Sequence record: NC_048172.1
Length of the DNA: 43,264 nucleotides
Source of the DNA: Escherichia phage Minorna
Direction: 5' to 3' (one strand)
The notes under the pieces were generated by a model. That model did not search any database. It was given only the letters and a program-made list of their open reading frames with translations, and was not told the DNA's origin. The position numbers and the translations under genes are program-made. This document shows, in pieces, positions 3,495 through 25,522 of this stretch. How positions within the stretch are numbered: position 1 is the stretch's first letter; each line of letters starts with the position of its first letter.

Positions 3495-5350
3495 TATCGT
3501 CTTCCTCTATGTTGTTTGCCTCTACCCCGACCTTGCAGCCGTGCAGCGACTCCCCGCAACTGTTTCTGGACCATACCCTGTGCCCAGTCCAACGGGTTAT
3601 TGATGAATGCTAGTGCCTGCTTCTCAGACTCTCGTGCAGCTACCACTTTCTCATCTTCTACCAGATGCCCGTTCAGTACTGCTACCATCATAGCGATGGC
3701 GTCTGCTCGGTCATCCTTAGCCAAGCTACCCCGGTCATACGTAATACCTGCGAGCTGTGCGAACGCAGAGTACAACCAGCGACGATCTCGGGGGTATAGC
3801 ATACAAGTCCCAATATCATCGTGAATAGCACGCTCATGCACCACTAGGCGGTGTCGTCGAGTTACTGGACTGATTGTGTCTATGATACGACGTTCTTTCT
3901 GCGTGGTGTTGTTAATGTCACGCACACCAATACCAGCAAGGTGACGCTCTCGTAAGCGGTTCAGAATAAGCATAGACACGGTACCGTGCCCCATGTTACT
4001 CTCTACCACCATGTCAGAGATGTCTAACTCTACGCACAGGTCAATGAGCTTGTCGATATTCTCGGTGCTTACACCTCCTTGGAAGCCCCCAACTGAGAAC
4101 AGATGAATGTATGAGTTAGCAGCCCCGCCCGCAGCATAGGAGACTTCATCCCCACCACAACCAGCTGGGTCCACCACCAGCACCTTGTGCTGATACGGCA
4201 AGTGCATATCTCCGTAGAATGCCGGGAAGTACATCTGCTGACCCATAATCCCCTCATGCTCGTGCTGGTATAAGTACCGGCGGTCCGCAATGTAGGAGAA
4301 GGTCTCTGGGGAGGAATCCTGGCTACCAGAGTAAACCAGCATATCCGAAAGCTTGATACGTGTACGCATCTGGTCGGACAGGGTTGTGTCGAGCATGTAC
4401 TGCAACTGGAAGCCTTCTGGGCCGAAGTCCAACTCCTTCTCAATCAGCGCATCCTCATCGTAGCGACCCTTATCGGTGCTCTCCCCTAACGTCCCATCGA
4501 CGCCGAAGCCGGTGCGTTTATAGCCGCGCTCAATAAGCTCCCGGATATAAGGAGCAAGTGTACTTCCATATCGCTCTTCCATTTCAACAGACGGAATGCG
4601 CCCAGGCCACACGCGGACCTCGAAGCCACGTCCCGGCAGTGTTTTATAGATACTGTCCTTGGTCTGTGGTGTACCCAGGTACAGCGTATCCCCGTGCGTA
4701 CAGATGGCCGCGAAGTCTTTAGAAATCGTCAGCAGCTGCTCGCGCTGGGTTTGCGTTAAGCCGTTCTTGGTGGTCTCGATATCGTCCGGAATCAGTAGGT
4801 CCGCACGCTTCCCCTGTAGGGATGCAGTGATACCTACACAGGCTACGCTGGCGGACTTATCTAGAGGTTTCAGGTCACAGTGTACGTCGTAACCTTCAAA
4901 GGAGGTTCGGTCCCCACGTGTAGGGTCAGCCTTCAAGTAGCACAGCAGCGGCCAGGTTTCCAGCATACGAATAATTAAGTTTGCTACGTCGGAAGCCTGC
5001 TTCTCAGCACCCGACACAATCAGGATACGGCAGGATTGGTCCTGGATGAGCCTCCAGACAGCGTATAGCGCAGCTAGTGTAGACTTAGCCTCACCACGCT
5101 GTGCAGCCACCATGCGCTTCCTAGGGCCCTTCTGCATATACTCTGCAATGTCGGCTTGCATGTCCGTGAGCGTAAAGCCTAGGAAGCGCATACCTATATA
5201 TGCGAACTCCCTGAAATTACTGAGGGTAGCCGCCATCATCATGGCGATATCCTCGCGCTCCTCTTTGGGAATACTGCGCGGGTTCGCATTATAACCAGTA
5301 AGTTTCTGGTTGAGCATGCGCAGTCTTCGCGCAGTCTTCACCGATACCAT
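3494..5350 (-). CDS. terminase large subunit (T7 gp19-like DNA maturase B)
   Basis: 618-aa ORF at the position and size of T7-like large terminases, with ATPase-like N-terminal half and nuclease-like C-terminal half; directly follows the putative small subunit. Confidence 0.85.
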   Translation of the reverse strand: MVSVKTARRLRMLNQKLTGYNANPRSIPKEEREDIAMMMAATLSNFREFAYIGMRFLGFTLTDMQADIAEYMQKGPRKRMVAAQRGEAKSTLAALYAVWRLIQDQSCRILIVSGAEKQASDVANLIIRMLETWPLLCYLKADPTRGDRTSFEGYDVHCDLKPLDKSASVACVGITASLQGKRADLLIPDDIETTKNGLTQTQREQLLTISKDFAAICTHGDTLYLGTPQTKDSIYKTLPGRGFEVRVWPGRIPSVEMEERYGSTLAPYIRELIERGYKRTGFGVDGTLGESTDKGRYDEDALIEKELDFGPEGFQLQYMLDTTLSDQMRTRIKLSDMLVYSGSQDSSPETFSYIADRRYLYQHEHEGIMGQQMYFPAFYGDMHLPYQHKVLVVDPAGCGGDEVSYAAGGAANSYIHLFSVGGFQGGVSTENIDKLIDLCVELDISDMVVESNMGHGTVSMLILNRLRERHLAGIGVRDINNTTQKERRIIDTISPVTRRHRLVVHERAIHDDIGTCMLYPRDRRWLYSAFAQLAGITYDRGSLAKDDRADAIAMMVAVLNGHLVEDEKVVAARESEKQALAFINNPLDWAQGMVQKQLRGVAARLQGRGRGKQHRGRR

Positions 5351-5658
5351 TAGACAATTCCTTCTAGTAAGTCCTCAGAGTCTGAACCACTAATCTTGTT
5401 CAAAATCTCTTTCTTACGCGCCTCTCTGCGCGCCGCTAGTTCGTCATCGAATTCATCACGTAGCTCCTGCATCTCCTCGGAATCTGCATCGGCGGTGATG
5501 TCATTGTCTTTCAGGAACTTGGCAATAACAGATTTATCAGCAGCCGGTAAAGGGACCGCATCTTCCCCGGCCTGACGCAGCTCCTCAATAAGTGCCTCCG
5601 TGAACATGCGGTGCAGTTCGCTGAGTCGGCTACGCGTTCCTGCCTTGGATACAGCCAT
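5350..5658 (-). CDS. putative terminase small subunit (DNA maturase A)
   Basis: 102-aa acidic helical protein immediately upstream of, and translationally coupled to, the large terminase; assignment by position and size only. Confidence 0.5.
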   Translation of the reverse strand: MAVSKAGTRSRLSELHRMFTEALIEELRQAGEDAVPLPAADKSVIAKFLKDNDITADADSEEMQELRDEFDDELAARREARKKEILNKISGSDSEDLLEGIV

Positions 5659-5667
5659 AAACCCTCC

Positions 5668-6009
5668 TTACCAGCCCACGGTGTAAATCAGAGCACCCAC
5701 TGGGAGTTCACTGGCGAAAGTTACAGTAGCCCCGCTGAGCGTGTAGCTATAGCCGGGAATCTGAATAACCCCATTGATGTAGATATCTACATCCGTGTAG
5801 GTGTTAGTTAAGGTAAAGGTAGTCCCTGCCTTGGATACAGTCAGGTACGCCGATGTACGGACACCCGGCTTAAGCGGCTTACCCCCAGCAGTGCTGCCAT
5901 CTCCAATGGTCAAAGTGTTGCTAGTGGTCAGAAGAACCAACTCCCCGGCCTTCAACACCTTGGTTGCCACTACGGCATCAGCACCTCGGCGTAGTTGTAA
6001 AGTTGGCAT
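5668..6009 (-). CDS. small tail-fiber-like protein (paralog 2)
   Basis: 113 aa; N-terminus MPTLQLRRG..AGELVL..GDGSTAGGKP parallels the adjacent 149-aa ORF and resembles N-terminal motifs of phage fiber proteins. Confidence 0.5.
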   Translation of the reverse strand: MPTLQLRRGADAVVATKVLKAGELVLLTTSNTLTIGDGSTAGGKPLKPGVRTSAYLTVSKAGTTFTLTNTYTDVDIYINGVIQIPGYSYTLSGATVTFASELPVGALIYTVGW

Positions 6010-6021
6010 TTCTACCCCCTA

Positions 6022-6471
6022 TTAGGTAATGACACCCAGGTCAATATTTTGCAACGTAGTATTGATGGTAACAGCAGCTGAGCCGTCAAAGTTAGCTGTA
6101 CCACTCACGTCACCAGACAATGCAATAGCTCTGGCAGTAGTCAGCTTAGCAGCACTACCCGTGGTGTTGACACTAGCAGTACCGGTTAGCAAGTTTGCTG
6201 GTACATCGGTAACTGCAAACGTAACGTCAGCACTACCGTCGAAACTTTGAGGAGCCGCCGTAATACCGGAGAAGCCAATAGTTCGAGCAGTCTTCAGTTT
6301 ATCGGCGGTGGATGCCGGGGTACCGGCACCTACCGGGAAGCCACCTGCGGTTGTACCATCACCCACGTAGATAATTTTAGCGGTGCTGTCATACACCAGC
6401 TCCCCGGCAAGCGGGATATACTTAGAGACCTGGGCGGTAGTCCCACGTTTAAGTTGTAAAGTTGGCATCAA
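6022..6471 (-). CDS. small tail-fiber-like protein (paralog 1)
   Basis: 149 aa; N-terminus MMPTLQLKRG..AGELVY..GDGTTAGGFP; Thr/Ala/Gly-rich remainder; follows the fiber adaptor gene. Confidence 0.5.
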   Translation of the reverse strand: MMPTLQLKRGTTAQVSKYIPLAGELVYDSTAKIIYVGDGTTAGGFPVGAGTPASTADKLKTARTIGFSGITAAPQSFDGSADVTFAVTDVPANLLTGTASVNTTGSAAKLTTARAIALSGDVSGTANFDGSAAVTINTTLQNIDLGVIT

Positions 6472-7221: not shown

Positions 7222-10200
7222 TTAATCGTCTCCGAAGTTATTGATGATAGCTCGCGTAGGCGCGAATTCCTGGATTAACGGGACCTGCTTAGTGAAGGTC
7301 TGGATATCCATATCCCCAGTAGCCAGGGCTTGCACCGCACCCAACAGCCCGGTGACGTAGCCCATAGACGCCAGAGAATGACGCGGAGAGTCCCCAGTGA
7401 AGATATCCTGCAGAAGCGAGATACCACCGATGGCACTCATACCCATAACCGATTCAGCGATAAGCTTTTGAGTGTCGACCTCTTTGCCGTCCATACCGTG
7501 CTTCGCCATAGTTGCTAGAAGCATCAATGGGAACTGGTATGCCATGATGTGTGCAACCCCAATCCACCCGGCATCATTCAACTCGCGGCGCAGAATCTTG
7601 TTGGTGGCAGCCAGGGCGAAGCTCTGATAGCCGACAATTACTTTGCCGATAGGGTTGAACTGGGCGAAGTGCGAGGTCTCACCGGTACGTACTTGCTGCA
7701 CCAAATAGTCCATCATACGCGTCCCTACCACCTCAACTTGCATTTGCAGGTCCGGCTGGAACATAGCACCAGGATTAGCTTTGTTAGCAGCAATAGCCCG
7801 GTCAGCGATTTCACGAGTAAGACCGAAACGTTCCAGACGCTTAAACGCCTCAGCGTCGCCCTTGAACATCTGCTGGAGCTCGTCCGCTACAATACCTGAG
7901 TTAAGGTTAACCTGCAGTCGATGTACCATACTCATACCGTTGACGTGACGTGCAGCCTGTCCAACGTTCTGGGTGACGTTAAACCAGGAAGCCTGACGGG
8001 TCAGGTCCAAGTTATCGTCTGCGTAGGTATTCAACCAGCGGAAGCGCATCTCCTTCTGGATACTACCACGTAGGATTGCATCCAGACGACTAGCCATATC
8101 CGGAGTGCGAATAGCTACGGAACCTTCTTTAAACCAAGGCTGCTCACGCATACTGCGAAGTACTCGGGACATACCAAACTCTTTCAGCGCTAGGGCGGTG
8201 TCAGTAAGCTGGTACAACCCAGAGTTCTTAAGCATGGTAGCGTTGGCCATGTTACCGGCTGCACGGAGCAGGTCCGGCATCTGCCCGGCGTCGGCTGGTG
8301 CCCCACCTAAGATAAAGTCGATGGTGTCATTAACGGTCTTCTCCCACTTACCTGAATCGGCCAGGGCGTGTTTGGACTCATTAATCATTGTCTCCAGCAC
8401 CTTGAGGTCAGATATCCCAGCATAAGCCATACCCACACGACCTGACATTCGGTTAGTATAACCATGCATAACCTTGGCTACGTCAGTATCCATCAGATCC
8501 TGCATACGCATAACCTGACCGTCTACGATGTACTCTTTGTCCATGTTGAAGCGGGTACGTTGACGGAGGTTCTTAGCAGGCGAGGTGGCGCCAGATTCTC
8601 GGACATTACCTGCCAAGAAACTCTGGATTGCATCCTCGTCTACACCAGCATTACGCATGGCCATAACTACTTCATCATTACCCATACCATTGATGAGTTG
8701 CTTCCACATAGGACCAGAGGCCGAGGAGCGTCCGTTGTAGATACCGTCAACCATCTCCTTAGCAACACGTTGAACGACCTCAGGCTCCATAGATGGATAC
8801 ACATCACGCAGTGCCTGACGGAACAGATCCCGATAATTATCCAAGGAGCGACCATTTGCAATACCTTGGCGCATCTTATCGTAGCTGTACTGGCGAGGGA
8901 AGTAATAGTCCGATTTAATCAGAGTACCGTCATCCACCAGCCCGGCAGCAGTCATGTGATCGTGCCACTTACTGGCCCAGCCGGAGTTGCGGTATGCCTC
9001 TACTAGCGGAACCAAGTCAGAGTCCGGCAGAGGTACCGGGCGTCCATTAACCTCCGCGCTGTATGCAGAGTCCAGGTAACGGCCCAAGCGGGCTTCTAAG
9101 TCAGCGCGAGCTGCTCGGAAGTTGCTACGGTGGAAGAAGCGGTCTATGAAACCTACACCTTTGGCCTTAAGGGCACCAAGTATAGCGTCCTCAACTACAC
9201 TGGCACTAGCGTCCATCTCCAACGTAAGGTTACGCTTGAAGTCCACCACAGACGGTTTACGACCGCCTACAGCAGTAGCGTCAGATACTAGTAAGCGTGC
9301 CAGGTCCTCGCTACCCTCTGCGATGTTATCATACAGGGAGAACATAGTGGCGAACTTGCGCTTAGCAGTGTCCATCATAGCTTGGGCCTTCAAGGCCTCA
9401 TGCTTAACCGATGTATCCGCCAAGTCCTGGAAGGCCTCACTCCGGAAGCTCTGAGCTTGGTCTGCGTAGTCCTTTGCGGTCCACTTGACAGCATCCTCGT
9501 ACGCGTCCAGAACATCCTCCAGAGCGGACCCCTTGGTGCGAATCCCCAGGGCATTCATGATGTACTCACCAATCTGGCGGAGCATACTCCTACCAGTAGG
9601 AGATTGAGTTCTAGAGAGATACTCCACCCACTCAGGGCTATCACCTAGTCCTGCTAACATCTCGTGCACATCGCTTGCGTAGTACTTAAGCTTATCACTG
9701 AGGGTTGAATCAGCTGCTATTGCAGCGCGCACCTCTTCCAGCTTACTAGCAATTTCAGGATTCTGCTTGATGGCTCTGGTGGTGGCAGCGTGAATCAGCT
9801 CGTGCACTGCTACTCGGCTAGTGTCCGCATCCATAGCACGCAGAGCATCCCCGGCAGTAGTCCAGGTACTTCCGTTCGCTTTCTTAGGGGCACGTAAAGA
9901 TATAAAACCCCTATCAGTTGTTGATGCTGGTGAAAATCCGTAGTGACTACGGTTAGAAGAACCGGCCACCAGTTTAAAGTCGATATCCTGTACTGCGTCA
10001 CCCAGGGTGTCCAGGATAGCCTTCTGACCTTTAGATAAGTGTTCAGAGGTCTTGAGGAAACGGACTACGTCCTGCGCTTTCATGTTAACAGCAGCAGTGT
10101 TATTCCGGCGAACTTGGATAGGTTCATCCAGTACCTTAGTGAGTATTGTGTCCCCTTCTCCTACTCCTGTAACATTAGCATCCCTTGCTGTACGAGTTGT

Positions 10201-19429: not shown

Positions 19430-21025
19430 TTAGCCCGGTAACAGGCCTAATTGTTGTCCCGCTACGGTAGGATCCGCTGCCTGGAGATCTTGTACCTGCG
19501 ACTGTGCTTGTGCTGCTGATGCCGCCGCTGCATTATCTTGAACTTGCTGCTTCTCTTGCAGTTGCTCTTCTGTGAGCATGAACGGTCCGCTTACGATACC
19601 GTATGCATCCAAGTACCAATCTACGCATGCATCCTCATTAAAGCGAGGAGTAAGCTGTTTGAGCACAGGAATAGCCAGCTGCATAGCCTGGGTAGCTTCT
19701 AGCAGTTTATCTGCTGCTGCTGCTTTAGCTAGTGCTGCAGTACCTACCATCACGTTGATATCCACTACGCCCTCGGTGAGATACACCTTGAACTTAGGAT
19801 ATGCCACGATAGTATACAGGTACGCGAGCTTACGCAGCCAGGAGTCACTGAGGATGCTGAATCCACCACCCATAGCGTACTCTGCCTCTTTAGCATTCTG
19901 ACGAATCTCATAAGCAGTTACACGCTCACCCTGTCGAGCATTACCAGTGTACATAAACGCACGAGCCAGTTTCTGCTCAAGCATCTGAATGTCGCTAGCA
20001 ATCCACTGAATCTTTTGAGCTGCACCACCCTCGTAAGCTGTTACAGGGGACTTGGTGTTACCATTACTACCACCACCACCAACCTGTACTGCCTCACCGG
20101 TCTCGGCTTGAGAGAACTCATCAACGTCTAAGCCGGAACTAGCATCAACCATAGGAATAAGGCGAGAAGCCTCAATCTCGTAGTTGGTCAACGCTTCGGT
20201 CAGCACAGACAGTCGCGCAAAGTCACCCGCATAGTCTTCCACCAGGCCGCGTCCGTAGTGCTCACCGTTAACCAGGTTCCACACCAATACGTTATACGGA
20301 AGTTCCAGCTCAGGGTAGGTGCTGCTCTCGCCTAGGCGACGGCCATCAACTTCTTGATACACCTCATAGCTTACTGCTTCTTCTCCATTTGGAAGGTGCT
20401 TAATCTTACGACAAGCGGCAGTGTAGATATCAATGTCGCTGTATGGGTCTCGACCATTGTAGTGTGCTTTTTGAATGTCTTCTGGGAGGTCCTGGATGCT
20501 GGCGCGCTCTTTGATAATGAGTCGCAGCACGTTCCCGCTACCATCCCTTCGAACGGTAAAGTTACGGACCGAGTAGATAATGGATTTCCCGGTTCTTTCA
20601 TCGATATACTCCAATGCGTTCCCGGTGATAAGCAGCAACTTCACAGCTTGAAGCTTCGCAGCGTATCCGTCCTTCTCAAATACCTTCTGAGAGGCGGTGT
20701 TCTCTACCTCGGATAAGCGGGATTCCGCAGTGCTAGAACTTCCCAGACTACTAATAAAGTTGTCAAGGGCTGCACTCTTAGAGAACCGAAAGAAGCTAGT
20801 ACCTTGCGGGAATAATGCACCTACAATTTTAGTCGCTGCTGTATTGACCAGCTGAGCACCTGTACTCTGATAGTCTCGACTAAGCTGCATACGCCGCCCA
20901 TCAGTATAGAGCTCTCGGGTAAAGATTGTAGGTAGCGTCCACTCAGCAAACTTCTCTGACGCATCCAGTACGCCAGCATCCTGGTCTCCCAGGAACAGTT
21001 CCGCTAATGTCTTTTTATAGTCCAA
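19430..21025 (-). CDS. portal (head-tail connector) protein, T7 gp8-like
   Basis: 531-aa ORF (T7 gp8 is about 536 aa), first large gene of the structural module, upstream of scaffold and capsid. Confidence 0.8.
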   Translation of the reverse strand: MDYKKTLAELFLGDQDAGVLDASEKFAEWTLPTIFTRELYTDGRRMQLSRDYQSTGAQLVNTAATKIVGALFPQGTSFFRFSKSAALDNFISSLGSSSTAESRLSEVENTASQKVFEKDGYAAKLQAVKLLLITGNALEYIDERTGKSIIYSVRNFTVRRDGSGNVLRLIIKERASIQDLPEDIQKAHYNGRDPYSDIDIYTAACRKIKHLPNGEEAVSYEVYQEVDGRRLGESSTYPELELPYNVLVWNLVNGEHYGRGLVEDYAGDFARLSVLTEALTNYEIEASRLIPMVDASSGLDVDEFSQAETGEAVQVGGGGSNGNTKSPVTAYEGGAAQKIQWIASDIQMLEQKLARAFMYTGNARQGERVTAYEIRQNAKEAEYAMGGGFSILSDSWLRKLAYLYTIVAYPKFKVYLTEGVVDINVMVGTAALAKAAAADKLLEATQAMQLAIPVLKQLTPRFNEDACVDWYLDAYGIVSGPFMLTEEQLQEKQQVQDNAAAASAAQAQSQVQDLQAADPTVAGQQLGLLPG

Positions 21026-21034
21026 GCTTCCTCC

Positions 21035-21298
21035 TTACAGGCCCAGGGGGTTGCTCTGCCCTGCCTGTCGCCGTTTCTTCTGCTCAGACGTAATTGCATC
21101 TGCAGATGCAGAGGCCGCCCCGGAGGGGTTGATCTCAGCAATATTGTCAGCTGCACTGTTCGCCTCTAAGGCTGCCTGCTGTTTTGCTGCCTCGGCCTGC
21201 TGCTCAGCCATGCGCTGCTGTTGTTCTAATCCTTCGTTATCAGTAAGGCCAAGCATATCCGTGGCCTTACCTAACAGTTTACCTAATCCACCGCTCAT
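21035..21298 (-). CDS. hypothetical protein (87 aa; possible small virion protein by position before the portal gene)
   Basis: Gln/Ala-rich helical ORF; contains the 16-bp palindrome TGCATCTGCAGATGCA in its coding sequence. Confidence 0.4.
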   Translation of the reverse strand: MSGGLGKLLGKATDMLGLTDNEGLEQQQRMAEQQAEAAKQQAALEANSAADNIAEINPSGAASASADAITSEQKKRRQAGQSNPLGL

Positions 21299-21735
21299 GC
21301 TGACCTCACTAAATGGTAAGTTGTTTTGTAAGTATTATCCGATGTATTGCGACTAATAGCGATGCGCCCAGCTCGCATACACTTAGCGATTGCTTGCAGA
21401 CCCTTCATAACTACAAGCATTGCCTCACTATTTCCTGGTTTCAATACGAAGAAGTCTGTGTACAACACAGGCTCTACGTAATGGCAGTCCTCTACAGCTT
21501 CTGGGTAGTAACTGACAGCACCTACTAAGTCGCCCCGGGAGTCATAGACTCCTAGTATATACTGTTTACCTAGTATACTTTTTAGTACTCTCCAATAGTG
21601 TTGCTCTGGAGCCAGGCCCCGACTAATGCCGTGGCCCAGTTCATGCAGTCGCTTCACTGCGTCTGTAATGTCGTCAGACTTATACAGAACCCTGAGAGTG
21701 TAGTCGGAAGTTTTACTAGTGTGTTTTAACTTCAT
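21295..21735 (-). CDS. hypothetical protein (146 aa)
   Basis: Start set to ATG 21735 (AGGAG 5 nt upstream); the track ORF to 21798 would overlap the upstream gene by about 40 nt. Confidence 0.45.
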   Translation of the reverse strand: MKLKHTSKTSDYTLRVLYKSDDITDAVKRLHELGHGISRGLAPEQHYWRVLKSILGKQYILGVYDSRGDLVGAVSYYPEAVEDCHYVEPVLYTDFFVLKPGNSEAMLVVMKGLQAIAKCMRAGRIAISRNTSDNTYKTTYHLVRSA

Positions 21736-21758
21736 TCCTACTCCTGTAACATTAAATT

Positions 21759-22097
21759 TTAGTAGGGTTCCCAAACCGGTATACCTGCCTTTCTGCACAG
21801 TTCAACCATACCAGCGGTCCCCCTTCCTCCAGGAAAGGCAACACAGTATTCAGGAAAGGCCAGGGATATCATGGCTGCGTTCCTACGTATACCCGCAGAT
21901 TTACCTTGTGCATCCCACAGTGCGGGCATACGCAGAACAAATACACCAGATTCCAGGGCCCACCTATCTGCCAGTGCATCCGCCCCTCTGGCATTTCCAT
22001 GTATCACTACAGATGGCTTGTTTGGCAGCATATCCATTGCGGTTTTTAGTGCTAGGTAGTCTGAGTAATCACGCCCACCAGTTACCAGTACTCTCAT
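21759..22097 (-). CDS. SLOG / YpsA-like (DUF2493-type) small protein
   Basis: 112 aa with pattern VLVTGGRDY..VVIHGNARGADALADRWA..FPGGRGT, which I recognise as the DUF2493/SLOG-family signature; immediately downstream of the RNAP gene. Confidence 0.55.
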   Translation of the reverse strand: MRVLVTGGRDYSDYLALKTAMDMLPNKPSVVIHGNARGADALADRWALESGVFVLRMPALWDAQGKSAGIRRNAAMISLAFPEYCVAFPGGRGTAGMVELCRKAGIPVWEPY

Positions 22098-22106
22098 ACG
22101 ATTCCC

Positions 22107-24575
22107 TCAACAAAAGAAGAATGGAGATTCCAGCACTTGTCGGATGTCCAAAGTACCGATTGCAGGCATCTCTAAATCTGTGAGGTCTGCCCCTGCTTCG
22201 GCAGCTGCCCGGGTAATATCTCCAAGCAGATCGTGCTCCTCGTACAACTTCACAAACTGTTCACGGATATGTCGGTGCAGGGCATCTACATCAGCCGCAT
22301 GAGTAGCCATTGAGTCGTGAATCGGGACAATATCCAGACCCTCTGCAGCACAGAGCACCATCATGAGGTGTGTGCTATCTAGGCTATGCACAAAGTTCGG
22401 AGCAATACCGGAGGCAGCCTTGCGCTTATTACAGGTCTTAAAGTCACGGTTGTGCACCAGCACGGCAGACAAGTTCATGCAGTCAATACGTACACGCACC
22501 TCCTCTCGTTGAGAGTACCGGTTCATCACTAGCCCACCTAGCGGGGTCTTCCACTGCAGATGCTGACTAGCAGGTACACGCCTAGCGAGGTTCTGCAGAT
22601 ACCCCATAGCTGCTGCTGCTGCCGGGTTAGCTTCCTCAATAGCGCTACGCATTCTAGGGGCAAGGTAGCAGGATAAGTTCCAGAGACTGTGCGTGTCTGT
22701 TCCTTCATACCCCTCTTCACAAGCACCTGCAAAGATGTAGTCGCTGCAGCTGCGCACCGTGGCGCTGTAGAAGTAGGTCATGCTAGGACGCTTGGTCATG
22801 CTTCGAGTGATTTTGTTCTCTCTCCAGTACGTGCTCTGGATAACGAAATCCTCTTTGTCCAGGTCCAGTATCACCTTCTCGTCCGTACGGCGCTTCACGT
22901 CCATATACAGGTCCGCTTTCTTGTCGTTACCCTCCCAGTACAAGTTAGTCAGGCGCCCGCCTACAGGGTCTCTCAGGAGCGCTGAGAGGTGCTGCCCACC
23001 TGAGTTTGTAGCATCCATAGCAACTGGGATTCGGCTAATATACTCTTCTGGGCATCCAGAACGTACAGCATTAACCAAGTCGATAGCGGCTGCCAGGAAG
23101 CACCAAGGGCTGTCGGCGGAGGTAAAAGCAGGGCAATCAAAAGGAGAATCCGCGAGCTGCTCAATCTCTGCAAAGTTTGCATCAACCCAAGCTGCACGGT
23201 CTTCGAATAGGGTTTTGTCATAACCAAAGCAGGTAGCGACGTGCACTTTAAGCCAGAATAACCCTCTCTCTCCCAGAGGTTTACCTCGTCCGAATTCAAG
23301 AAGTGCCTTCTGCAGATCAGAACCTTGGGGGTGCAGTGAGGACTTGAAGTACAGCCGGTATCGCCAATCCACACAGGTTGGGAAGTACAGGGCTTTCTCA
23401 TCTTTGAATTCCTCTGCCATCTCTAGCGTGGTCAATAGGCTACGTAGTTGCGACACACGCTTACGGTCAGCGCTGTACCAAAGAGACATACGCGTCTTCC
23501 ACTCTCCGAAGCGGTCGAGTTCCTCCTCGGTGTAATTCTCTTTTGGTACACCATCTAAGTACCACTCAGGTTTCGGCTCTGGCACTGAGCGCGGCATACC
23601 TACACCAATACCTAAGGCCCGTGCTTCTTGTACCAGTTCCAGTATTCGCTTATTAATGCGATAAGGAGTTTCCTGCGCCTTATTCAGTGCCTTCTTGATA
23701 CCGTCCGCAGACTTAAATGCTTCCGCTACTTCACGCAGTCTGGCGCGGTCAATGTGTGAGTTGTGGTACGTCCCACGGTTATCGATTGGGGTGAGGTATC
23801 CACCATCCCACAGTGTAGTATGTTGCACCGGCGGCACCAGCATCGGAGGCTTCATAGTTACAGTGTCAGCAGATTCCACTAACTGCTGAAATGCTTCCAT
23901 AACATTATCTGCGGGATAGAGCATACTCAAGTTCCCGCTACCAGTCTTCCATTGGAACAGCCCTGTCTCAAACACTGCGGAACACAGCAGACGTCCCACA
24001 GAAATATTCTGAGCGTTGGTCCAAGGCTCATGCCCATAGTGCACGTTCTCAGCACTGGCGCGGAGCGTACGCAGAATGTGCGTAGGCGACTTAGTACGGC
24101 GCTCAGTGAGGTATTCATATACCCGGTCCATATACGCTGGGGCAACATTACGCAGTTGTAGGGCCAGCAGCTCTGACTGTACATTCCTACCCAGAGCGGA
24201 CATCACTGCCTGTGCTGTCTGGCGGCGACTGGCGGACTCACCAGGGGCAACACTGAACGCCTCAAACATTGTGCACAGGCTCAGAGTAGTTAGGACATCC
24301 AAGGGGACTAAGCGTAGGAATCGGCGGTACTTTCCACCGATACCCGGGGCTTTGACATTACGCATTTCCTCAATGGCTGCAGAGGCCACGTCGTACGCAG
24401 AGGTTAGCATGCGCTGAGCCATAGGCAGGTTCATAATCCCGCCGTTTTGCAGAGCATCGGTAATCAATTTGCGAGCACGTTCAATGCCGCGAATCTTGTA
24501 GGTCTCTTCAAGCTCCAACTGACGTTCCACCAGCGCTTCATCTGGTACTACAACCGTATTCAGGGCGCTAATCAT
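22107..24575 (-). CDS. single-subunit DNA-directed RNA polymerase (T7-like)
   Basis: 822-aa ORF, the size of phiKMV-type single-subunit RNAPs, at the junction of replication and structural modules; AAGGAG SD upstream of the ATG. Confidence 0.85.
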   Translation of the reverse strand: MISALNTVVVPDEALVERQLELEETYKIRGIERARKLITDALQNGGIMNLPMAQRMLTSAYDVASAAIEEMRNVKAPGIGGKYRRFLRLVPLDVLTTLSLCTMFEAFSVAPGESASRRQTAQAVMSALGRNVQSELLALQLRNVAPAYMDRVYEYLTERRTKSPTHILRTLRASAENVHYGHEPWTNAQNISVGRLLCSAVFETGLFQWKTGSGNLSMLYPADNVMEAFQQLVESADTVTMKPPMLVPPVQHTTLWDGGYLTPIDNRGTYHNSHIDRARLREVAEAFKSADGIKKALNKAQETPYRINKRILELVQEARALGIGVGMPRSVPEPKPEWYLDGVPKENYTEEELDRFGEWKTRMSLWYSADRKRVSQLRSLLTTLEMAEEFKDEKALYFPTCVDWRYRLYFKSSLHPQGSDLQKALLEFGRGKPLGERGLFWLKVHVATCFGYDKTLFEDRAAWVDANFAEIEQLADSPFDCPAFTSADSPWCFLAAAIDLVNAVRSGCPEEYISRIPVAMDATNSGGQHLSALLRDPVGGRLTNLYWEGNDKKADLYMDVKRRTDEKVILDLDKEDFVIQSTYWRENKITRSMTKRPSMTYFYSATVRSCSDYIFAGACEEGYEGTDTHSLWNLSCYLAPRMRSAIEEANPAAAAAMGYLQNLARRVPASQHLQWKTPLGGLVMNRYSQREEVRVRIDCMNLSAVLVHNRDFKTCNKRKAASGIAPNFVHSLDSTHLMMVLCAAEGLDIVPIHDSMATHAADVDALHRHIREQFVKLYEEHDLLGDITRAAAEAGADLTDLEMPAIGTLDIRQVLESPFFFC

Positions 24576-24716: not shown

Positions 24717-25031
24717 TCACTTGGAAGCATCTTCTCGCTGCTCTAATTCCAGAATAAACAAGGCGCAACACGCGGCGTGCGCTAGATGCGGAAGCCCGCT
24801 CTCGGTATCCGTTAACTCCCCATTAGCATGCGCCGTTAGGTGGCGCAGAAGCGCGGCTTTGTACCGAGACCGCCCCTCCTCAACAGTGTGCCAGCTATGT
24901 GCTGCATACTTCTGAGCTCCGAATGTAAGTACATCACTAATGCGGAGCAACGCATTAGGGCACCCATCCAGTAGCAGATCCATACGAGGTTTGCCTGCGT
25001 CATACTTCATACCAGTACCTACTGCGCTCAT
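24717..25031 (-). CDS. putative nucleotide pyrophosphohydrolase-like protein (MazG-like / dATP-dGTP diphosphohydrolase N-domain-like)
   Basis: 104 aa; MKYDAGKPRMDLL..FGAQKYAAHSW resembles the N-terminal signature of phage dNTP pyrophosphohydrolase-like proteins as I recall it; assignment tentative. Confidence 0.4.
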   Translation of the reverse strand: MSAVGTGMKYDAGKPRMDLLLDGCPNALLRISDVLTFGAQKYAAHSWHTVEEGRSRYKAALLRHLTAHANGELTDTESGLPHLAHAACCALFILELEQREDASK

Positions 25032-25522
25032 ACTAACTCCTCCACCCCATGAGATTTTAAATCGGTCCGATGTTCCGCCACGCCGTAGTCACATACAGCG
25101 TAAGTAGTGATACCCAGTCGGCGGAAATGCTCAATCACTGCAGGACTATCGTCCCAAGCTGCTACGATATTCTCTAACCCTACCTGGTTGCGCAGGAACT
25201 CCTCTTTGATAATGATGTCCTTTCGGTTGTCGCTGTGTGACCGCATAACCAGCTTGTGGTACATAACGAAGTTCCGCTCCAGCCAGGCCTCTGTTTCGGC
25301 TCTTACTATATCCGAGCGCCCCGTCAAGATAATAACTCGCAATCCTGCTCGCACCATGCTGTTACACACGTCGATAGTGTCCTGGAATGGAGGGTCATCC
25401 TTAGAGGCTCGGTTGAACTCGTTCCAACTATCGGTCAGATGCAAATCCACAGTGGGTAGCAAGTGCAAGCGATGCTTACCATCAGCTAGTGTGCCATCCA
25501 AATCAAAGATTGCTGTCTTCAC
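25028..25522 (-). CDS. HAD-family phosphatase (polynucleotide 3'-phosphatase-like)
   Basis: 164 aa beginning MKTAIFDLDGTLADG, the HAD motif I (DxDGT) at the extreme N-terminus. Confidence 0.6.
   Translation of the reverse strand: MKTAIFDLDGTLADGKHRLHLLPTVDLHLTDSWNEFNRASKDDPPFQDTIDVCNSMVRAGLRVIILTGRSDIVRAETEAWLERNFVMYHKLVMRSHSDNRKDIIIKEEFLRNQVGLENIVAAWDDSPAVIEHFRRLGITTYAVCDYGVAEHRTDLKSHGVEELV

Follow-up and report, generated by a model that had tools for sequence, protein, structure and literature searches.

We analyzed a 112-amino-acid (aa) gene of Escherichia phage Minorna (NC_048172.1), lying between the phage RNA polymerase gene and the structural genes. The window, meaning the whole stretch of DNA analyzed, covers the complete 43,264-bp genome of a KP34-like phage (genus Drulisvirus), with every gene on the minus strand. 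The gene product is very likely a dispensable, stand-alone YAcAr SLOG domain and no LOG hydrolase. Tentatively, we favor a role as a DprA-like binder of single-stranded DNA (ssDNA) or replication intermediates. The family is already known: it is in Pfam and in PHROGs, near-identical proteins have been deposited, and the annotation itself adds nothing new.

Family, fold and pocket residues

The protein matched PF10686 (YAcAr, 'YspA, cpYpsA-related SLOG family', formerly DUF2493) with E=2.2e-14 and 53.5 bits against a cutoff of 28.2, over residues 1-62 only (the Pfam model has 66 positions), and PHROG_289 with E=1.4e-26. It shares the length and motifs of the family, and PF10686 was found in all 120 of the best of its 3108 homologues in a large protein database. 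A sequence-only reading of this DNA had assigned the gene to a poorly characterized, Rossmann-like SLOG/DUF2493 family from the motifs TGGRDY, HGNARGADALADRWA and PGGRGT, all of which lie within the 112-aa open reading frame (ORF). The assignment is borne out both by this significant hidden Markov model (HMM) match and by the predicted fold. Codon differences from Klebsiella phage JKP2 (28 synonymous vs 4 non-synonymous over 112 codons) indicate purifying selection. ORF42 of JKP2 occupies the same genomic position and has been deposited and published as 'YspA-related SLOG family'. Other YAcAr members include the mycobacteriophage D29 gp61-like proteins and the C-terminal domain of ICP1 HelB; HelB and DciA-YAcAr are multidomain, whereas the window protein is a solo domain.

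The family is common in viruses, with homologues found by tblastn in 1100 of 50,697 phage records (Mycobacterium 412, Vibrio 103, Klebsiella 77, Escherichia 65, others) and structural matches up to giant viruses. No experimental study of any YAcAr/DUF2493 member, and no experimental function, was found in the literature searched, where the functional statements published for the family are computational only. The YAcAr/SLOG family was reportedly defined by Burroughs et al. in 2015; the clade definitions used here come from later papers of that group. Homologues carry other labels elsewhere, namely 'DprA-like DNA processing chain A' in actinobacteriophages and 'GTP-binding domain', a PHROG label that we rejected because no supporting motif was found.

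An AlphaFold2 model built on 25 homologues (mean predicted local distance difference test score 97.4) has a five-strand beta-alpha topology and adopts the SLOG-type Rossmannoid fold, in which a five-stranded sheet is part of a three-layer alpha/beta sandwich and strand 1 is followed by a ligand loop. The 17 best solved-structure neighbours of the model are all SLOG-superfamily proteins, in line with the fold foreseen from the motifs. They include, with their scores:

ShosA (DprA-like): 12.8, the best structural match
TM1055: 12.6
YpsA: 12.5, with the lowest root-mean-square deviation (2.0 A)
LOG: 11.4
ThsA SLOG domain with 3'cADPR: 11.3
YgdH: 11.3
Moco carrier protein: 10.7
DprA (four entries): 10.5-11.6
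TRPM2: 8.7

BFVD added 56 viral structural matches, from phages to pandoraviruses, with template modelling scores up to 0.95, many of them named YspA/cpYpsA-related SLOG or DUF2493. Searching the PDB by sequence with the single protein gave no match at E up to 10, and a search with the family profile gave noise-level matches only (DprA E=1.5, DarA E=0.41).

Conservation was scored over 25 homologues at ~50% identity. There are 21 invariant columns (G7, G8, R9, G34, A36, G38, D40, A59, W61, A68, G69, N73, P82, A87, P89, G90, G91, G93, T94, M97 and V108), and D10, G65 and R72 are conserved in at least 90%. The gene and its motifs are:

21759-22097, minus strand: SLOG-domain gene, 112 aa, stand-alone, ATG start (PF10686 YAcAr/DUF2493; PHROG_289)
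22068-22079, minus strand: G7-G8-R9-D10, glycine-rich loop following strand 1, with R9 aligned to the DprA G-S/T-R arginine
21978-22001, minus strand: H33-G-N-A-R-G-A-D40, G-x3-G-x-D motif following strand 2; counterpart of DprA 'SGLARGID' and of the YpsA-clade GxD/E
21879-21923, minus strand: A59-x-W61...G65-K-x-A-G69-x-x-R72-N73, family-specific long helix 3 (helix 61-80 in the model)
21807-21833, minus strand: P89-G-G-R-G-T-A-G-M97, LOG-like PGGxGT phosphate loop with Glu replaced by Met97 (hhalign against PpnN)

In LOG enzymes the Glu of PGGxGTxxE is catalytic, and in the Thoeris sensor ThsA the Glu of GGxGTxxE contacts the ligand. Aligned by hhalign, YCVAFPGGRGTAG falls on residues 251-263 of E. 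coli PpnN, GIIIFPGGVGTAE (E=0.001), setting the LOG Glu on invariant Met97. No Pfam Lysine_decarbox (LOG) match was found at E up to 0.1, and LOG/PpnN (YgdH) has seven strands where the window protein has five. Because an invariant Met97 occupies the position of the catalytic Glu, a LOG-type phosphoribohydrolase mechanism is, as judged from the alignment, excluded, and we rejected a LOG-type hydrolase or N-glycosidase. A nucleotide-pool enzyme could still be imagined, an N-glycosidase or related hydrolase of (deoxy)nucleoside monophosphates with a non-LOG catalytic residue (D10 or D40) that would reshape pools alongside the neighbouring nucleotide-metabolism genes. With the defining Glu lost, the LOG profile unmatched and no known precedent for catalysis in the YpsA or DprA branches, we regard it as distinctly unlikely.

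Other SLOG proteins differ from the window protein in instructive ways. The substrate-binding signature of the YpsA clade, GxD/E (PMC6459960), is present as G38-A-D40, with G38 and D40 both invariant, and yet B. subtilis YpsA itself (PDB 2nx2) has no detectable sequence similarity (hhalign E=0.29) and gave no usable alignment. Unlike the ThsA SLOG sensor (PDB 7uxs), which binds cyclic ADP-ribose isomers and belongs to sensors fused to an effector, the window protein has no effector fusion (SIR2 or transmembrane) and does not conserve the Glu of GGxGTxxE.

The N-terminal half also shows weak sequence parallels with DprA. Against a DprA profile made from E. coli Smf and four PDB sequences, hhalign placed residues 2-54 on Smf 109-163 (E=0.007, or E=0.0007 with permissive settings), with G8-R9 on Smf S115-R116, so that R9 falls on the invariant DprA arginine, and HGNARGAD on SGLARGID. 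By hand, R72-N73 and the next strand and loop are collinear with DprA RRN...VVEA...SGS, but greedy hhalign sets the helix elsewhere at low confidence. In HpDprA and ShosA, the loop arginine on which R9 falls (R52/R139) and the R-N-R arginine (R143/R234) are required for ssDNA binding and ShosA antitoxin function (PMC12961424). The family is also moderately basic, with an isoelectric point above 8.5 in 19 of 25 members. In contrast to DprA/Smf and ShosA (PDB 8zva, 3maj, 4ljk, 3uqz), the window protein has only 112 aa, carries PGGRGT in place of the SGS loop, and does not keep the third DNA-binding arginine. Also missing are the helix-strand insertion of ~35 residues that follows strand 3, the SAM-like domain at the N-terminus and the C-terminal domains. 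The protein thus resembles a SLOG core reduced to essentials, with a DprA-like first half and a LOG- or ThsA-like last loop.

Presence and absence among relatives

The gene is an optional, dispensable accessory. Escherichia phage AV102 (Drulisvirus, KP34-like; Autographiviridae, Slopekvirinae) is 97.7% identical across the tested 3.6 kb, and the IMG/VR contig UViG_2974544971_000001 is identical to the window. SFN6B, KPV811, IK_ECO1 and others (~96% identical) match 90% of the same 3.6-kb query in two pieces. In the closest relatives SFN6B and KPV811, an exact ~350-bp indel leaves the SLOG gene missing and the junction otherwise the same; the SFN6B polymerase ends FFFS-stop rather than FFFC-stop and is followed directly by the next gene with its conserved leader. 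DNA of the SLOG gene occurs in 46 phage records, ~42 of them Klebsiella, Escherichia or unnamed-phage records, in agreement with the 42 records found by tblastn at identity of at least 80%. Since 253 records match the polymerase region, about one Drulisvirus in six (~42/253) has the gene.

Two features of its DNA similarity are recorded separately. The SLOG gene is 90-97% identical to that of Klebsiella drulisviruses, vs 86-87% for the surrounding 3.6-kb region and 77% for the polymerase 3' end, which suggests recent recombinational exchange or unusually strong constraint. Four Vibrio phage records also gave blastn matches to the gene, either at 80-90% identity or over part of its length; given how distant the hosts are, such closeness is unexpected.

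Neighbourhoods of homologues and candidate roles

We then considered 61 diverse IMG/VR viral loci whose homologues are 43-62% identical. Of the 185 genes lying up to two positions away, few have Pfam matches, and those that do are mostly replication, recombination or DNA-modification genes. The families (best 25 of 38 and best 25 of 31) include helicases, primase-helicases, single-stranded-DNA-binding protein, family A DNA polymerase, RNase H-like, YqaJ, DnaB, Toprim, 5'-3' exonuclease, methylases and dCTP deaminase, along with a few integrase, terminase or lysozyme genes. Several loci show tight linkage:

L025: RepB-primase/DUF5906 protein, upstream, 1-nt gap
L032: Prim-Pol/PriCT_2/DUF3987 primase-helicase, upstream, 4-nt overlap
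L081: SF2 helicase, upstream, 4-nt overlap
L019: PolB-exonuclease-like protein, upstream, 4-nt overlap
L035: NrS-1-pol/D5 primase-helicase, upstream, ~150-185 nt
L087: family A DNA polymerase, immediately downstream

A cluster A mycobacteriophage carries its SLOG gene between a DnaB-like helicase and a primase, and natural fusions join the domain to an SF1B helicase (ICP1 HelB) and to the helicase operator DciA (Streptomyces). Ten longer ORFs from viral contigs had PF10686 only and no second Pfam domain, and their extensions may be longest-ORF artefacts. The bacterial contexts were uninformative (an Alcanivorax chromosome edge by a photolyase operon, and a phage-like metagenome contig).

We propose that the canonical SLOG pocket, made of the G-G-R-D loop, G-x-D, W61, R72-N73 and the PGGRGT loop, would bind a phosphate-sugar-base ligand. 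Like the Rossmann domain of DprA and ShosA, it may hold ssDNA or replication and recombination intermediates, and the protein would then assist or shield the replication machinery of the phage as an optional factor. We lean toward this DprA-like role because of the DprA-type motifs, the recurrent tight linkage or fusion to helicases and primases, and the basic charge, and we do so tentatively.

Several points weigh against DNA binding. All sequence links to DprA fall below family-membership significance, including PF02481 (DNA_processg_A) at 13.7 bits vs a cutoff of 29.6 (E=0.035, residues 5-51). R72-N73 may be equivalent to the DprA R-N-R motif by hand alignment only, and the same alignment sets the third HpDprA arginine, R170 (ShosA R261), on the non-conserved Val98. 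D10, D40 and the invariant Asn and Trp in the pocket resemble a site for specific small-ribonucleotide recognition, or an active site, more than a groove for DNA in general. No binding or activity data for any family member were found in the literature searched. Phage anti-defence genes also sit in replication modules, and patchy presence in close relatives is typical of counter-defence genes. Finally, the family's curators, the Aravind group, predict from Macro, NADAR and Nudix fusions that viral SLOG domains, YAcAr included, sense or degrade signals derived from NAD+ or ADP-ribose (PMC9503650; PMC7824862).

The sequence-only reading had likewise raised nucleotide signalling and counter-defence, which are no better supported here than a DprA-like DNA-binding role. 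The domain would sequester an NAD+/ADP-ribose-derived immune messenger (e.g., the cyclic ADP-ribose isomers of ThsA) or cleave it at the 1'-ribosyl bond. Such a function would fit the PGGxGT loop and the acidic and aromatic residues of the pocket, as well as a size like that of sponge proteins and a patchy distribution. Against it, the Glu of GGxGTxxE is Met97, PADLOC gave no match, and the recent sponge and anti-defence papers searched make no mention of the family. Association with Macro, NADAR or Nudix by fusion or neighbourhood, a contextual and non-defining trait of the family, was likewise absent, with no Macro, NADAR, Nudix or TIR among the families listed for the 185 neighbour genes of the 61 loci. 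We judge counter-defence of this kind the main alternative, possible though on the unlikely side.

A related possibility is that the protein, as a minimal copy of a sensing domain, acts as a decoy for the SLOG- or DprA-type immune sensors of the host, either by soaking up the sensor's ligand (cyclic ADP-ribose for ThsA; phage ssDNA with RecA for ShosA) or by substituting for the antitoxin. ShosA is a DprA-like antitoxin whose lost RecA contact unleashes a phosphoribosyltransferase (PRTase) toxin, and phages with mutated replication proteins can escape ShosTA. The best structural match of the model is ShosA, yet PADLOC finds no specific relationship, with no ShosA or other defence-system match at E up to 1. 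Nor was the paired toxin gene of ShosTA found: the near-identical AV102 genome has no annotated PRTase, and none is among the neighbour families listed. We consider the decoy unlikely. If it were true, carrier phages would escape Thoeris- or ShosTA-type abortive infection, and DUF2493, present in ~2% of sequenced phage genomes, would be a large unrecognized anti-defence family. Together with its close relatives bearing the exact deletion, the window phage forms a naturally matched plus/minus pair for the question of DNA vs immune-nucleotide binding.

Two neighbourhoods are noted in their own right. One neighbour gene, two positions from a homologue within L019-L087, encodes an RyR domain (PF02026, E=2.7e-09); a 2026 preprint describes phage RyR-domain proteins that degrade ADP-ribose-based immune signals. 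In Mycobacterium phage Chaph (L004, 4180-5375), a 'phosphoribosyl transferase' gene and the DprA-like SLOG gene are two genes apart, which echoes the PRTase and DprA-like pair of the ShosTA defence system.

The polymerase/SLOG junction and flanking genes

The gene sits where the sequence-only reading had accurately placed it, at the junction between the RNA polymerase and the structural genes, with the polymerase upstream and a 147-aa gene, an 87-aa virion protein and the portal downstream:

22107-24575, minus strand: T7-type single-subunit RNA polymerase, 822 aa, directly upstream of the SLOG gene (PF00940 E=3.7e-90, PF14700 E=1.3e-09)
22098-22109, minus strand: RNA polymerase TGA stop and 9-nt spacer, with a GAGGGA ribosome-binding site (RBS) overlapping the stop, read from the sequence
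21295-21738, minus strand: 147-aa gene, PHROG_5167 (E=1e-58), 20 nt downstream of the SLOG gene
21035-21298, minus strand: virion structural protein, 87 aa (PHROG_3112 E=3.5e-25; AV102 annotation)
19430-21025, minus strand: portal gene (AV102 annotation)

From this placement a role in transcription switching had been suggested, the protein acting on phage or host RNA polymerase in the change from middle to late transcription. The support is positional, in that the gene begins 9 nt past the polymerase gene and the structural genes follow soon after, and the comparative data contradict it. About five in six Drulisvirus genomes have the same junction without the SLOG gene, as do SFN6B and KPV811 with their exact indel. 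Among the 95 immediate same-strand neighbours of homologues in the 61 loci, none is an RNA polymerase. Many carriers, such as mycobacteriophages, show no phage RNA polymerase near the gene and carry a sigma factor instead. A transcription role is very unlikely because the gene is absent from the closest relatives and most Drulisvirus and has no polymerase neighbours in those loci; we rejected it for a gene that is dispensable and has no RNA polymerase linkage elsewhere.

On the minus strand, the junction reads TGA-GGGAATCGT-ATG, so that the SLOG start lies 9 nt past the polymerase stop, and GAGGGA is a Shine-Dalgarno-like sequence overlapping that stop codon. No terminator-like or sigma-70-like site was found between the two genes. 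The SLOG gene is probably co-transcribed with the RNA polymerase, at the end of the DNA-metabolism block, and its translation is possibly coupled to that of the polymerase gene, as the RBS overlapping the stop would allow.

On the other side of the gene, a ~50-nt stretch, AAAATTTAATGTTACAGGAGTAGGAATGAAGTTAAAACACACTAGTAAAAC (21690-21760, minus strand), is invariant in four phages, the SLOG-less SFN6B included, and extends from the SLOG stop codon across the spacer into the beginning of the next gene; the polymerase 3' end beside it is only ~77% identical between the window and JKP2. The stretch occurs only once in the genome and forms no significant RNA structure (z=+1.28), and on these grounds a repeated phage promoter or regulatory element was rejected. 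It is probably a conserved RBS or translation-initiation region together with the 5' end of the 147-aa gene.

That PHROG_5167 gene occurs with or without the SLOG gene, and its product has no Pfam or NCBIfam match; some records label it 'acetyltransferase'. Its start is the ATG at the equivalent of 21738 in the AV102, SFN6B and JKP2 annotations. A mechanical ORF list runs the gene (21295-21798, minus strand) to a GTG at 21798, which gives a 40-nt overlap with the SLOG gene. Farther downstream, the 87-aa virion protein and the portal (19430-21298) form the start of the structural module.

A second variable spot lies just upstream of the RNA polymerase gene, comprising:

24717-25031, minus strand: stand-alone 104-aa PF18909 'dATP/dGTP diphosphohydrolase N-terminal' domain protein (E=4e-34)
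25028-25522, minus strand: 164-aa gene, putative polynucleotide kinase/phosphatase by AV102 annotation

In SFN6B, a shorter DUF3310 protein replaces the PF18909 protein and the 164-aa gene is absent. The PHROG labels of the PF18909 protein conflict, reading 'pyrophosphohydrolase' vs 'endolysin; inhibits RNA polymerase'. A phage-like metagenome contig (L091) encodes a 490-aa PF18909 protein (4702-6174) ~1.8 kb from its YAcAr gene (8001-8363), so that the two families are paired there as in the window, which may be a coincidence.
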